Source: Leucoraja erinacea (Eukaryota). From it: a stretch of 64,000 bases of DNA. A program made the translations under genes and the position numbers. How positions within the stretch are numbered: position 1 is the first letter of the stretch; the number at the start of each line of letters is the position of its first letter. The notes beneath the pieces were generated by a model that ran no database searches, was not told the origin of the DNA, and saw only the letters and a list, made by a program, of their open reading frames with translations. Positions 9,052 to 60,721 of the stretch are shown in pieces. Location of the stretch: the NCBI RefSeq assembly GCF_028641065.1, contig NC_073383.1, positions 64,046,001 through 64,110,000 on the forward strand. Reading direction: 5' to 3'.

Positions 9052-9288
9052 TGTAGATTAGTGTGTCTCTACTATATATACATCACCACACAGATTATGC
9101 ATGCTGCACATTCCTTATGTAGTCCAGTGTGGATCTTCATCTCTACCCGCCCATAAACCCGCGTGTCTCTCTCTCTCTTGAATTAGATGTATGCCATGGA
9201 GACAAAAGCAGAATGTGTTTCCTCCATGGAATTACAAATAAAAGACTACGAGTTCTAAACTCTAAGTGTGAGTCTGATCATTTCAACA
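9052..9288 (+). mobile_element. Gypsy LTR (TGT...ACA)
   Basis: Starts TGTAGATTA, has AATAAA at 9237-9242, ends TCAACA directly before a PBS. Confidence 0.75.
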
Positions 9289-9306
9289 TGGTGTCAGAAG
9301 TGGGAT
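9289..9306 (+). promoter_or_regulatory. Primer-binding site complementary to the tRNA-Leu 3' end
   Basis: TGGTGTCAGAAGTGGGAT, the canonical 18 nt. Confidence 0.85.
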
Positions 9307-9319
9307 CTTGATGTTTCCA

Positions 9320-9710
9320 TGACAAATCCGACAAGGAATGTGTGTTTATATTTTGTCTCTCGATAGAGGCAGCATGTCCTCGTTAGTCAGAGATGTTGGT
9401 GTCGGAGGTCCGTGGGACGTCTCTGGCTGTAAGTTCTCTTGCTGGAGCAGGTGGACTGATTGCTTCGTCTGTGCTCTGTTCCCACGCGAGTGGCAACAAT
9501 GGATGGAATGATTTCTGCGTTTACAGCACTGACAAAGTTCACAAATGCCTCCATGCGAACCTCCACAGTTCACACAATTACTAATGAACCCAACACCAGA
9601 TCTACCGGGCACTTGTGAAGGCTGGCGCTGGGCCTGATAAAACGTGCCGGCAACATTTACATCATAGGCAGAATGGGGACCCAGCCCCAGGGTTTTAGTG
9701 TGTGAGTCTG
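9320..9710 (-). pseudogene. Inverted Gypsy gag C-terminal (zinc-knuckle) fragment
   Basis: ORF 9346-9612 contains CVNCGGSH..C and CQCCKRRNH...C. It overlaps the end of the plus-strand gag by 60 bp (55/60 identical). Confidence 0.7.
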
Positions 9711-9809
9711 ATCATTTCAACATGGTGTCGGATATCTCAGACACCTTACTCTCCTAGTTGGTTTCAGTTTATTTTAGTTTGTTTTTTTTGCTCAGTTCGT
9801 TGTTTTACT

Positions 9810-53662: not shown

Positions 53663-54160
53663 CCACCCTCCTTCTCTCTCTCTCTAGATGCACATGTTAG
53701 CTGGGAGCTATGCTTGAGTGGATAGGGCGGGGATGGGGTTAAAGGAGCGACTGAATAATATTAATATATTATCAAGGGGGGTGGTTAGTGTATTATCAAG
53801 GGGGTGGTTAGTGTGTGTGTGTGTGTGGGGGGGTGGTTAGTATGCGTGTGACGCTACAGACAGCCCCCGCCCCACAACTGTGTGTTGAGGGTACGGGACG
53901 AAACGGGTCCCACTTGGTCTACTAACATATAAAAGGAAATCAGATAAAGAATTGAAAAAAAAAAATGGTTTTGGGGGGAAGTAGAATTAATTATAGTGGA
54001 TTAAAGGGCTAGATAGCTACAATAGGCAGAATCACCTCCATCTGTGGGTACTTTATGTGGGAGAAATTTGTCTGCATGTTCAGGTTCTCGGCACTAAGCT
54101 GAGAGGGCATAGTCAGGCAAAGTTAACAAGGATGTAGATTAACCCTTATTAATCCATGCC

Positions 54161-54428
54161 TGGAAATCATTGTAGAGCTGCCATGTCCGTAGATGTTGGC
54201 ATTTAGTTGATGGTAATGGTTTTAGACGGGTCTTGTCACATGTGTAGGCAGTAAAGAGTTGTTCCATAGTATGTTGGAAATCTTCACTGGATGAATTGAT
54301 GCCAAATGGCTTTCGTAAGAATCTGTAGCGTCCATAGAGCATTGCGAATGTGGTTAACATGGAGGATGCATGGTCTAGCGGTATTTGCCAAAATGAGTTC
54401 TTTGCATCTAGGACAGAGAAGACTGGCT
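54161..54428 (-). pseudogene. Gypsy RT fragment with the YxDD region deleted
   Basis: VFSVLDAKNSFWQIPLD..LTTF..YGRYRFLRKPFGINSSSEDFQ, then a DPSKT..MPT..LQxFxGM-like tract in another frame. Confidence 0.8.
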
Positions 54429-54429
54429 T

Positions 54430-54655
54430 TACCCAGACTGGCTGCGACCTCTTCCACCGCCTACATAGCTGCTGTTGGTGCCGACAATGGCTGCCATGGT
54501 GTACTGCTCCTTGCTGTTTTGTATGTGTTTGTTCGTTTGGGTCGTCTGTGAATACCCGACAAAGATTACTTTCACAAGAGAGGTACTCATAAACATCGGA
54601 CATGCAGTACCTCCAAACATCGTTCCGGATTTCTCTCACTCGCTGGATTATTTGG
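54430..54655 (+). mobile_element. Probable 5' end of a Rex1-like LINE
   Basis: atggctgccatggtgtactgctccttg... encoding ITFTREVLINIG resembles fish Rex1 leaders as I recall them. Confidence 0.4.
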
Positions 54656-55660
54656 ACTCGACTTCTTCTTGTTATAAAGGCCAACATGCCATTCACTTTC
54701 TTCACTGCCTGCTGTACCTGCATGTTTATTTCATAGACTGATGAACAAGGACCCCCAGATCCCGTTGTACTTCCGCTTTTCCAAACTTGACGCCATTTAG
54801 ATAGTAATCTGCCTTCCTGTTTTTTATACCAAAGTGGATAACCTCACATTTATCCACATAAACTTCATTTGCCATCAATCTGCCCATTCCCCCAACCTGT
54901 CCAAGCCACCCTGCATTCTCATAGCATCCTCCTCACAGTTCACACTGTCACCTAGCTTTGTGTCATCTGCAAATGTGCTAATGTTACTTTGAATCCCTTC
55001 ATCCAAATCATTGATGTATATTGTAAATAGCTGCGGTCCTAGCTCCATGCCTTGCGGTACCGCACTAGTCACAGCCTGCCATTCTGAAAGGGTCCCGTTA
55101 ATCCCTACTCTTTGTTTCCTGTCTGCCAACCAATTTTCTATCCATGTCAGCACTCTATCCCCAATACCATGTGCCTTAATTTTGCCCATTAATCTCCTAT
55201 GCGGGACCTTATCAAATGCTTTCTAAAAGTACAGGTTCACTACATCCATTTTCCTAGTTACATCCTTAAAAAATTCCAGAAGATTAGTCAAGCATGATTT
55301 CCCCTTGGTAAATCCATGCTGACTCGGACTGATCCTGTCACTGTGATCCAAATGTGTGGCTTTTTCATCTTTTATAAATGACTCCAGCATCTTCCCCACC
55401 ACCAATGTCAGGCTAACTGGTCTATAATTCCCTGTTTTCTCTCTCCCACCTTTCTTAAAATGTGGGATAGCATTAGCTACCTCCAATCCACAGGAACTGA
55501 TCCTGAGTCTATAGAAAATTGGAAAATTATCACCAATGCATCCACGATTTCTAGATTCTGTTCGGTCATGTGTTCACCGTGTCCCGTCCTCTCCAGCTTT
55601 TTATGTAGCCTCCTCGCCTCAGCCTCCCCACCAAAGACTCACTATACTAGACTCGCTGAA
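54655..55660 (-). mobile_element. CR1 internal RT fragment plus a 5'-UTR-like piece
   Basis: [36 protein letters not shown]. Confidence 0.85.
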
Positions 55661-56409
55661 TGTCCCTATCCAGCTATCTAGCAAGTTAAACAATTAATCC
55701 AATAAAGACCCGTAGACACGAGATGTCGTTGATTCTTTACTGTATTCAACTGTGAAACTGTAACATACAAGCAGAAAGGGAAACCGCATATTTAGTAACG
55801 TTATACACTTGGTATAGAAACATAAACTATGATGCCACCACTAAATACAGTGCTGTTATGTCAGAAACCAGCCAGGGTACATGAAACATTCTTAACTTTG
55901 TTAATGATAGCAATCCTGCGCAATAACGTTAGTAACATATAAAGATGCTGTTACACAAACATAATTACTCACAGACAATGCGTCTAACAAACTGGGGCGG
56001 AAGGATGGCATTAGATTGTGCGCTGGAATTACAGTCTGCACCATGCAGTACTCTCCCTGAGCTGGACTTCCTGGTTTATGATAACTTTCTGCCTAACAGG
56101 AAGGGTAACTCAAAGCTGTAGGAACCTGAACATACAACAGGTGGCATTAATACCTGTAAACAGAAAGTGGTCCAGCACACTCACACTTTACTCACGGCAC
56201 TTCCCTAACAAGGCCGCTTCCCTAGACCAGCCTTGCTTATATTGACTGATAAATTGCCTAATTTACCAATTTACAAATCAAATTCCTCGGTTTTAAACTG
56301 TTTTTCCCCTGTGACTTAGTCACCTTTCCCACGGGCTTCACCCAATAAGCTCTTCACCCTGCTTCTCTTTGATTCTTCCTTGTCCAAGATCCACGTAAGC
56401 ACTGGGCTC

Positions 56410-56529
56410 ATCTTTAGGGTTGATGCAAGTCCTTATTTCGGCTTTGTTCATGTTGATTGCTGTGATCATGGTGGAGTCCCAGGTGGAGGGGTCGTTGACA
56501 GGGGCTATCACACCCAGTGTTTCCATTCT
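56410..56529 (-). pseudogene. Gypsy RT N-terminal fragment
   Basis: (DR)METLGVIAPVNDPSTWDS..EIRTCINPKD matches the Gypsy MExLGVI..V.EP..W.S..IRICINPKDLN pattern. Confidence 0.75.
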
Positions 56530-56578
56530 GTCTCAGTCTCCTTTGGAGGTGTGGGTTCGTATCCCACTTCTGACACCA
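56530..56578 (+). other. 3' 49 nt of mature tRNA-Leu including CCA; this is an extended PBS of the minus-strand element, not a tRNA gene
   Basis: gtctcagtctcctttggaggtgtgggttcgtatcccacttctgacacca covers the variable arm, T arm, acceptor strand and CCA; the 5' half is absent. Confidence 0.8.
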
Positions 56579-56812
56579 TGTTTGTAAATGTTCTACAACA
56601 ACACACATAGTGAAAGATCAATCATTATTCCATAAGCAATCAGGAACATTTTAAACTGCCAACCATTCACATACAGCTCGGCGTGGTTTGTGAGAGTTGG
56701 CTGACCTTGCTAGAGTAAAGCTGTGTAGTACCGTAATACCATGTAAAGGGTGGCATGCATAAATGTGTAGTGGAGATTATAAATGGCATGGATTAATAAG
56801 GGTTAATCGACA
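56579..56812 (-). mobile_element. Gypsy 5' LTR (234 bp)
   Basis: Minus strand TGTCGATTA...ACAAACA directly before the PBS. The start and the cac.acaca..ttatgcatgc motif resemble the LTR at 9052. Confidence 0.75.
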
Positions 56813-59524
56813 TAGGAGAAACAATTCCACTGTTGTGATGGTGTGCATAGATGGCTAGAAAAACATTTTGTAGTTGAATACACCACTCTTATGACTAGTC
56901 AGGTTCGGCTTCTGACAGTTGTCAGGAAGAAGGATGGAGTAGGGAATTGGGGAATTGAGCTTTCAGTGGATATCATATCCTGGACCGGTTTGTAGTTTGC
57001 AAGATTAGGAAAATCACAGCAGCAATCTTCAGCTGGTACAGTTGGTTGAATTGCCAGCCTGTACCACTACAGTTGTGACAGAGATAAAGATTTATTATAG
57101 ATTATGTTGCATATATTCCACATAGCCACTTCATTCATTGCATGGATAAAAATAATCCTCTTGCACAGCAGGATTGAAACATAACTTCCTCTACAACAGG
57201 AGATGATTTATTTAAACTAGCTCACAGTGTTACAAGCAAATTAAAATATTCAATTTTTATTATCATCATAAATTTACTTTATGAATAATAATAACATTGA
57301 TATATCATTTGTTTTTTTAATATTGCATATAACTGGAAAATATTAATTTATTTGATGTTTATAATTGCTTCTACCTATTTTGTTTCTTTGATCTACAAAA
57401 AAAAAACCCTTTCCCCAGTGAAATAAAGATTAAAGCTGGTGCATACCAACAAATGACAAATCTTTCCTAACCCCATGCACCATCTTAAACGCTTCCATCA
57501 AATATTACTGTTAAAATATTGTTAAGCACAACTTCAGCAGATTTACTTCCTGCAAAGTGCTATTTAACAAACCTAGGCAGGATACCAGTGAGCAGAATGA
57601 ATTACAGGTTGCCACTGCGTTTCCTGTGATGGGAGTGACAAGGGATCATTTTGTCATGGGACCACCTCCAGCGTGTTGTGACAACCGGTCATTACACCTC
57701 TGAACACAAAGCTCAGCTGCAGGTTTTTATAAGATGCAAATGGTCTCAAATGGACCCATTTGTTTGTTTGACAAAATTGGAAAGGCTGATAATGTATTTT
57801 CTCCTCACAAATTTCGGAGTGTAAAAGCAACCTATGACACAAGAATGATTCAATAAAGAATGTCTCTGCTAATAACATGCTTTTTTTTAGTTATCTAAAA
57901 ATCTTTCTGTAAAAGGATCACACTGAAGGAAGTCATCGTGCTTTGATTTCATTCCCACAGTTAATGTAATAATGTTATTGTTTCTGTGGTGCCGACACTT
58001 ATTTCTCAGGTCAACATTTATTTGATGTTCAGACTGAGAGCACTAAACACATTTATCTGCAGAATGCAGAAAAATGTTGTATTTTCCAATAAAAAGAAAC
58101 AGCAGGGCACTACTACAATGTTGATCTAGACTTAGCATATATTTGACAAAAATGACAGATACAAACTTTTTTTCATATATCTGCTTACAAACCATTCACA
58201 AAGGAGTCGAATTTGCTATCAATTTAGGCAGGAGAAACAGCTGCATAAATTGCAGTTGGAGAAAGAACAACCTATAATCCTCTTTTTCAGACCACCAAAG
58301 AGGCCTCTAATACAAGATCATTAAGAGGAACCTTTAATTTTCCCTTTCCTTCGGTATTGTTTGCAGTAATTCTCAAACCCCATGGGTTTGTAAAGTTCAA
58401 ACCACTTCCGTGCAAATCTGAAGATATGGCCCCTGGGTATTCTTTGGAGAAAATTACAAATCACGACAGGAGTGAGAGTCAGCTAACATTGACTTTCAGC
58501 AGCCCTTTGGTATTGTTGCTGAAAGTGGTCGAGGTTTGACCACTTGAATAGGTAATCCTCTCACACATGTTATTTTAAGTCTATTTCTGCCTGGTCGAGT
58601 TGATGATCCTGAAATACTTGCATGTTGACCTGAAATACTTGCATGCTCATTAACCATTCATTCACCTTGCCCTTTTACTGAATGATTCTGCTCTTAATTC
58701 CCACTTCATCGAAAAGAACATTCGGAGGCTATAAAAAAAAAGATTGCTGCTCTTTGCAAATATTTTTGACAATAAAGCCTGGGTTTCCAATATATCAAAA
58801 GCCAGATGGCCTTTGGCTTCCAACGGTATGTACAAAAATGAAGATGCATAAGAACACAGCAATTTTAGATGATTTTTTTGAAATTGTTGCTTTGTTTGGA
58901 AACTTTTATTATTAATATGGTCATTCTAGGGTGCATGTAAGCAGTCATTGCCCATTCATAAAAGTCTCTGAACCTACTGTACGTCTAGGCTATTTCACTG
59001 GATATTTATGTGTCAATCTCATGTGGCCAAATCAGGTAAAGATGGGGGGGTATCCTTCCCTGGAGGTTGTTGGTGTCTTTATGACAATTCAATAGATTTA
59101 GTATGGCCATTACTGAAACTAGCAATTTTAATTCAAAATGTAATTGCTCAAATTTAAATTCCCAGATACCATTGGGTGTAGGAATTCAAACTCATGCCAC
59201 CAGAGCAATAGTTCGGGTCACTGGAAACTAGTGCAATAACTTCACCACGGTGCTATTAGATGTGCATTAATATAGAACATGGTTTAAAATGGATATTTAA
59301 TATTACGACCGATGTTACATACCAAAAGTAATTTAAAATACTCCCATACAGCTCATATTTTGGCAATATGTTCCTCTTTTAATCAGTGCTTACATATACA
59401 TCTCTTTATAACCTGAAAAACCGATGAGCTATTTATTCTTTTAAAGTTATTTTGGCTAACCAGAAGAATAACATGATCTGGGACAGATATCAGTAATGGT
59501 TCAGATTTTTTGCTGAGATTCACA

Positions 59525-60173: not shown

Positions 60174-60721
60174 TGCCCGTCCCACTTAGGAAACCTGAAC
60201 GGAAACCTCTGGAGACTTTGCGCCCCACCCAAGGATTCCATGCGGTTCCCGGAGGTTTTTGTCAGTCTCCCCAATGGTCGAAAGTGGTTTCCGCTTCCTC
60301 TATGTTCCGGCGATTATTTCAAAAAATTAAAAAACGGCCGCGAATAAAAATAGGTTGCCGTTTTAAAAATCGGTAATTTTTTAGTCGAAGCCGGTTGCGA
60401 TGCTAGTTGAAGATGGTTGCCGGAGGTTGCAGGTGGTTGCCGGAGGTATCTGCAACCTCCGGCAACCACCTTCAACTAGCATCGCAAACCGGCTTTGACA
60501 AAAAAATTACCGATTTTTAAAACGGCAACCTATTTTTTGTTGCGGCCGGTTTTGAATTTTTTGAAATAATCGCCGGAACATAGAAAAAGCGGAAACCACT
60601 TTCGACCATTAGAGAGACTGGCAAAAACCTCCGGGAACCGCCAGGAACCGCACGGAAACCTTGGGTGGGGCGCAATGTCTCCAGAGGTTTCCGTTCAGCT
60701 TTCCTAAGTGGGACAGGGGCA
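60174..60721. mobile_element. Foldback MITE, PIF/Harbinger-type (TTA TSD)
   Basis: Inverted arms of about 260 bp and a spacer under 20 nt; termini TGCCC..GTCCCACT / AGTGGGACAGGGGCA; TTA at 60171-60173 and 60722-60724. Confidence 0.85.

Follow-up and report, generated by a model that had tools for sequence, protein, structure and literature searches.

The window, the whole 64,000-nucleotide stretch of Leucoraja erinacea DNA analysed here, contains an element that we read, with a probability of about 0.88, as a defective Ty3/Gypsy copy formed from strong-stop DNA that likely extended past tRNA position 58, took up about 30 tRNA bases together with errors and entered the germ line by integration. 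Methylation as the cause of the errors and annealing of the over-long strand inside pol by a 3-nt microhomology are likely parts of this reading. Copying events of this kind are independent and have occurred by the hundred, across many LTR families, in this 2.19 Gb genome. The wrong bases and the end points of the copies gather at a few tRNA positions, likely as a result of RT stumbling over chemical marks on the tRNA, and the genome is thus likely to hold a fossil tRNA-modification map.

A tRNA-derived tract between LTR and RT

Read on the minus strand, the end of the LTR (CA, 56580-56579) directly adjoins sequence complementary to the 3' end of a tRNA, which is followed by RT-coding sequence. 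The features of the element are as follows.

56579..56812, minus strand: 5' LTR of 234 nt, TG...CA, Ty3/Gypsy-type family, 84-92% to many genomic copies
56561..56578, minus strand: PBS, 18-nt complement of tRNA-Leu 76-59, of which near-full-length members have the first 11-12 nt only
56560, plus strand: T replacing A58, likely an m1A58 misincorporation; A in all genes, non-A in 47 of the first 100 copies
56533..56560, minus strand: read-through copy of mature tRNA-Leu(CAG) from 58 to 41/40; 45/49 over 56530-56578 to gene L051 plus CCA
56543, plus strand: T replacing the variable-loop C (e2/47d), likely an m3C misincorporation; 47/59 copies changed, neighbours about 1%
56530..56532, minus strand: 3-nt microhomology, tRNA 39-37 equal to the pol acceptor, from comparison with a family member
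56410..56532, minus strand: RT N-terminal piece, putative landing site of plus-strand transfer; 89% to L171, 87% to L173
54476..56409, no strand assigned: later insertions splitting RT, about 1.9 kb, comprising an LTR-like repeat (55643-56179), LINE-like DNA (54656-55558) and other DNA
54154..54475, minus strand: RT resumes; 84-91% to L171, L173 and L002; RVT_1 with E 8e-6, below the curated cut-off
54133..54160, plus strand: inverted copy of the first 28 nt of the LTR, the element's far end, ending in CA, from sequence comparison
54128..54132, no strand assigned: far flank, TSD-like, 4/5 match to the 5' flank at 56813-56817

Comparison of 56530-56578 (plus strand) with the 3' part of the genomic tRNA-Leu(CAG) genes that have a TCT variable loop (positions 37-76 including CCA) gave 45/49 identity, with 44/49 for the ACT-loop Leu(CAG) genes and 37/49 for Leu(CAA). 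The four mismatches to the TCT-type gene are A58>T at 56560, C48>T at 56550 (a CpG), loop C>T at 56543 and G40>T at 56533. A preliminary description of this DNA, made from the sequence alone, had proposed tRNA-Leu similarity far beyond 18 nt, and this is borne out, as are its identification of 56561-56578 with the PBS at 9289 (18 nt identical to 9289-9306) and its view of the T at 58 as a wrong base after read-through, all 18 genes retrieved having A58. Its anatomy was right for the tract and for the direct jump into RT (1,537 nt of gag and protease are missing between the two, measured against family member L171), while the loop signature at 56543 and the far end at 54133 had been missed.

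The proposed mis-transfer to pol via microhomology agrees with the 3 nt at 56530-56532 that tRNA and pol acceptor have in common. As tRNA position 40 fits neither source, the tRNA-derived end of the window copy can be placed at 41-37, and a stop at 37 cannot be fixed from this copy by itself; the claimed stop at m1G37 is ambiguous here and finds its support in the copy population. The preliminary description had also taken an 18-nt PBS as the norm, and here it has to be corrected: in four near-full-length members (L171, L172, L174, plus L007/L010) the PBS pairs with the tRNA over about 11-12 nt, so that the remainder of the PBS at 56561..56578 was itself likely copied from the tRNA. In 4/5 near-full-length members gag starts 48-61 nt after the PBS.

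Neither ARAGORN, run on the whole window, nor Rfam, searched over 55500-57500, returned a match. Contigs of public DNA runs, compared with small-share runs left out, reproduce the LTR/flank joint exactly in three of four runs and confirm the RT/insert joints. Contigs of the tRNA tract are many and have differing loose ends, those at 56543 appearing in 4/4 runs. One 70-nt contig equals 56503-56572 with zero differences; its RT side measures 27-30 nt, below the 31-nt bridging rule, under which no public-run contig bridges the tRNA/RT junction, and the run it comes from may be the assembly's own sample.

The family is Ty3/Gypsy-type, as judged from L171, which has two LTRs 96.6% alike, a 5-bp TSD, a purine tract and the pol order RVT_1, RT_RNaseH_2 and then Integrase_H2C2 (weak, E 0.006) in broken reading frames. 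By itself, the 41-aa RT piece of the window copy has no Pfam match. This copy is without a normal 3' LTR; instead, a 7-nt microhomology with RT at 54154-54160 joins the inverted LTR end. Its far flank at 54128..54132 is at the same time identical to the tail, inverted, of the polypurine tract in this family, and the TSD-like 4/5 match could be a carry-over of that tract. The LTR-like repeat inside RT (55643-56179, 537 nt) is unrelated to the element and has more than 1,500 candidate matches genome-wide. Elsewhere in the window, 60176-60717 forms a long inverted repeat with arms of 161 nt, 91% complementary and spaced 90 nt apart.

Recurrence of read-through copies across the genome

The one-off event envisaged in the preliminary description is contradicted by at least 270 genomic loci carrying read-through copies. 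Two exact search patterns were used, which miss shorter or older copies: one that extended beyond the PBS by 16 nt and left position 58 free matched 221 times, and one with 54-61 free and CCA required gave 270, each against 0 for the reversed-pattern control and so well above chance. A perfect 18-nt PBS adjoins 849 LTR ends, and at least 11 nt are present at 1,509 (control 13), the Leu-primed LTR junctions. Long read-through is thereby found in approximately one fifth of Leu-primed junctions, the patterns not being strictly nested, and 14 of the first 30 perfect-PBS loci have an extension of at least 7 nt. A generic pattern for other primers (T-loop, CCA and LTR, limited to tRNAs lacking C at 63) had 9 matches versus 15 in the control, and three of the nine are mutated Leu copies; primers other than tRNA-Leu left no trace in this search.

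Junctions, variable loop and ends were analysed in the first 100 of the 221 matches, from which four genes were removed to leave 96. The LTR end adjoins the tRNA copy in 93 of these (exceptions L047, L091 and L140), and the 93 copies have 92 different junctions, the one pair that shares a junction lying 23 kb apart. There are 49 different LTR-end 10-mers among the LTR-adjacent copies. Within the window's own family, six mappable copies have six different landing sites and the base at 58 varies between copies. A sense match to family proteins within 1.5 kb was present in 58 copies and lacking in 34/92; an internal deletion was observed in 52/58, and the other six (L032, L036, L076, L125, L137 and L158) are colinear with gag, indicating that an extended strand is able to land close to the leader at small cost in sequence. 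Plain 18-nt PBS loci were deleted in 4/16 cases, colinear in none and unclassified in 12. Among the 15 copies with two LTRs and an alignment beginning at TG, 13 are flanked by an exact 5-bp TSD, one by a 4/5 match and one by none. At several mapped junctions, compared with diverged reference members, there is little or no microhomology.

Some copies have unusual architectures. In L113 (G000:C35:4116141-4120173), in L008/L065 (G000:C36 near 7.663 Mb) and in the window at 54133-54160, a unit of LTR, PBS and tRNA copy is closed by an inverted 15-28-nt LTR 5' end, giving a fold-back element with U3 at both ends. L113 and L065 are flanked by exact 5-bp TSDs, which suggests that integration needs no more than two U3 ends. 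In L043 and L081 (also L103 and L107) the extended strand landed in the 3' LTR, leaving mini-elements in which the tRNA copy is followed by a partial LTR. In L125, L134, L131 and L144 an antisense LTR follows the tRNA copy, and in L125 and L134 it runs into the polypurine tract; this antisense continuation implies a switch to a plus-sense template.

Wrong bases and end points along the copied tRNA

Pattern searches retrieved 18 Leu genes, namely 13 Leu-CAG (loop TCT or ACT) and five intron-containing Leu-CAA, and all 18 have A58. The copies carry CCA, which is absent from the genes, and an intron-less Leu-CAA pattern has three matches, 3/3 adjacent to an LTR, with introns present in 5/5 Leu-CAA genes found. 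The CCA and these three spliced copies identify the template as mature tRNA. Nine clustered Leu-CAG genes at G000:C34:18.32-18.53 Mb (L056-L064) have the ACT loop. Every CAG-type LTR copy long enough to include the anticodon stem agrees with the dispersed TCT-type genes, a hint that the ACT-loop cluster seldom serves as primer.

Changes at positions 54-61 were counted by hand in the first 100 of the 270 matches. Position 58 was changed in 47 of the 100 (T 36, G 7, C 4), versus 4, 1, 1, 2 and 4 at the non-CpG neighbours 54, 55, 59, 60 and 61 and 15 and 8 at the CpG positions 56 and 57; the difference between 58 and 59 is highly significant (Fisher 4e-16). About half of the copies retain A at 58, which may stem from hypomodified or correctly read tRNA. 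The variable-loop C, which the pattern did not fix, was changed in 47/59 copies (T 36, G 6, A 5) as against 4/358 in neighbouring cells, and the changes extend over both primer types (4/4 CAG-type, 32/44 CAA-type). Whether a copy is changed at 58 and whether it is changed at the loop C are not significantly linked (P 0.32). Young copies, with LTRs 98-100% alike, are equally changed (58 in 8/17, loop C in 10/14), so the changes predate integration and are not later decay.

The end points of the copies are also position-specific. Per base, the probability that a copy ends is about 0.11 over 44-40 and climbs to 0.23 at 39, 0.41 at 38 and 0.60 at 37. Of 22 copies that reach 39, one passes 36 where about 14 would be expected (P about 1e-8, with 37 scored neutral). 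Six copies pass 37, four of them with T or C in place of G37; five end at 29-27 and none extends beyond 26, these five ends lying 0-2 nt from the starts of the search patterns (29 or 28). Most searches required an extension longer than 54-55, and the end counts refer to copies that run past those positions. The loop C was also weighed as a stop and rejected: 12 ends lie directly ahead of it, but the mean over this and the two following positions is an ordinary rate, and no clear pile-up remains.

Position-specific mixed mismatches and stops such as these correspond to the RT signatures described for m1A58, m3Ce2 and m1G37. The suggestion that the tract is a record of tRNA modifications stands as regards the pattern, m1A, m3C and m1G being the presumed identities, taken from zebrafish and human maps. 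By the same comparison, the marks would be m1A58, m3Ce2, m1G37 and m2,2G26.

The same capture could in principle have occurred with base changes that are tRNA gene variants (unassembled or extinct isodecoders), RT error or later mutation. Exact patterns can miss genes, unassembled tRNA genes may exist, T stands at the loop position of one degenerate CAG gene (L057), and C>T is the most frequent change. Gene variants would nevertheless have to supply three wrong bases at either site, and this in no fewer than three isodecoder backgrounds, from a gene set in which A58 is invariant among the 18 retrieved, and at sites and end walls that match the marks mapped for zebrafish and human; against later mutation, neither site is a CpG and young copies have equal rates. 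We regard this explanation as improbable. Still less probable is a tRNA-derived SINE or a LINE-made tRNA retropseudogene that came to lie at the PBS by insertion or recombination once the element was integrated. LINE and SINE-like repeats abound in this genome and a LINE RT would misread modified bases too; yet in 93/96 copies the tRNA 3' end lies exactly at the LTR end, in PBS orientation and without a tail or TSD of its own, the internal sequence loss begins at the tRNA end, there is no common 5' boundary, and ARAGORN and Rfam are silent at the window locus. A genomic tRNA or SINE origin with T58 and one boundary, raised in the preliminary description, is likewise at odds with the 18 retrieved genes, which are all A58, and with the near-unique junctions. 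A tRNA-derived SINE was rejected as a candidate on the grounds that only the 3' half is present, at LTR ends and with 92 different flanks, in place of the A/B-box head, common body and tail expected of such an element.

Least probable of all is that the extension is inherited as a constant feature of the family, in the form of a lengthened PBS or of a primer over-extension sequence descending from one or few founders; the sample largely refutes this. Lentiviruses do have a short primer over-extension sequence, according to the portions of PMC13191261 used here, and 6/92 extended copies are colinear with gag. The 23-kb pair, however, is the only case of a shared junction, the base at 58 differs within the window's family, and near-full-length members have 11-12 nt only, the extension being absent from them. 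We retain the reading of recurrent over-extension on mature, probably modified tRNA-Leu.

Proposed mechanism and relation to known systems

In the mechanism that we propose, tRNA-Leu primes at the short 11-12-nt PBS, a step apparent in the sequence, and plus-strand synthesis from the polypurine tract would then copy the LTR and the attached tRNA, as is established for retroviruses and Ty3. We infer plus-strand strong-stop synthesis as the time of these events. RT would misread 58 and the variable-loop C and stall mainly at 39-37, rarely at 29-27, in line with the observed pattern, presumably because of m1A58, m3Ce2, m1G37 and m2,2G26. With a native PBS of 11-12 nt, a tRNA copy of 18-60 nt has an unmatched 3' end and likely lands at chance sites, in keeping with the deletions and the absence of colinearity among plain 18-nt PBS loci. 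Such an over-long end would prime at a chance microhomology on the minus strand or, alternatively, fold back onto U3; the junctions of both kinds are observed, and the order of steps is the probable one. Integrase would finally insert the product, consistent with the 5-bp TSDs of other copies and with the ambiguous flank of the window copy. Mis-transfer of tRNA-bearing strong-stop DNA is somewhat more probably than otherwise a main death route of these elements, with about one fifth of Leu-primed junctions concerned. No host function of the copies is evident.

The mechanism is already known; what is new is the germline record of hundreds of events and the prediction for Leu-CAA described below. 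Deletions with tRNA read-through occur in spleen necrosis virus vectors. The skate copies share three features of delayed second-strand transfer, having tRNA sequence contiguous with the PBS past 58, a deletion junction at the insert and a mature template. In HIV-1, the consulted parts of PMC12657518 describe 44 defective proviruses with delayed second-strand transfer, inserts of 7-54 nt and changes at 58 in 5/44, and there too LTR, PBS and tRNA insert mark an internal deletion junction. Those cases concern a somatic lentivirus with an 18-nt PBS and tRNA-Lys3, whereas the skate copies are germline Gypsy elements with a short PBS and tRNA-Leu, at no fewer than 270 loci and with 47% changed at 58. 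The skate copies have further signatures, at 37, at 26 and in the variable loop, that do not appear in the consulted parts of PMC12657518, whose Fig. 5b may show more mismatch positions.

HIV-1 plus-strand strong-stop DNA made in vitro stops at 58, 55, 54 and 37 (PMC13191261, as excerpted), and with the corresponding parts of PMC8599865 this gives a picture like ours, with a major stop at m1A58 and minor ends at later modifications including 37. In those sections of both papers, products past 54-55 are deemed unable to transfer or integrate, whereas here they were integrated with TSDs. For Ty1/Ty3, the relevant part of PMC5371799 describes the tRNA-copied plus strand as normally a dead end whose primer sequence is not inherited. 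The present elements resemble Ty3 in being Ty3/Gypsy-type with a short PBS and a tRNA-copied strand that is normally not inherited; they differ in that Ty3 stops after 12 nt, while the strands here reach 18-60 nt and were likely rescued by mis-transfer.

RT-signature tRNA-seq offers the closest parallel for the error pattern, with misincorporation or stops at m1A58, m3Ce2/47d (Leu-CAG), m1G37 and m2,2G26. Zebrafish tRAM-seq places m3Ce2 in Leu-CAG and Ser, and m2,2G26 and m1A58 in Leu-CAG (PMC11417395, consulted sections); in human, HAC-seq (PMC7969016) and MSR-seq (PMC9072684) place m3C47d in Leu-CAG and m1G37 in Leu-CAA, again according to the parts used; and m1A yields arrest together with context-dependent mismatches in the excerpt of PMC4787781. 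In contrast to these assays, it was a retrotransposon RT that produced the read-out here, in vivo, and the genome has preserved it. The consulted portions of the tRNA-seq papers report variable-loop m3C in Leu-CAG and Ser only, whereas here the Leu-CAA copies are changed too (32/44), from which an m3C-like mark in the Leu-CAA variable loop is predicted. The writer of the variable-loop methylated C was given as unknown in the cited part of PMC9072684 (2022).

The copies provide an in-vivo, germline, position-resolved view of a retrotransposon RT working on its modified primer tRNA, which has mostly been studied in vitro (HIV-1, yeast Ty). They would also allow tRNA modifications to be inferred for species with only a genome assembly, and for the past, in the form of a modification map drawn from DNA alone; the new prediction that it yields is the methylated C of Leu-CAA. 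In a literature search, mostly outside subscription journals and Repbase/Dfam notes, no genome-wide germline record of this kind was found described for LTR retrotransposons. The data further suggest that most perfect 18-nt PBSs in the families studied are error products and not native priming sites, which bears on the annotation of transposable elements.

A second element lies in the window at 9057-9760. Its 18-nt PBS at 9289 is followed by about 390 nt of other sequence and then by the LTR 3' end again (9266-9298 repeated at 9700-9732); this second LTR end carries a short imperfect PBS, with gag at about 9810. The 18-nt PBS at 9289 may itself be a tRNA-copied product of mis-transfer.
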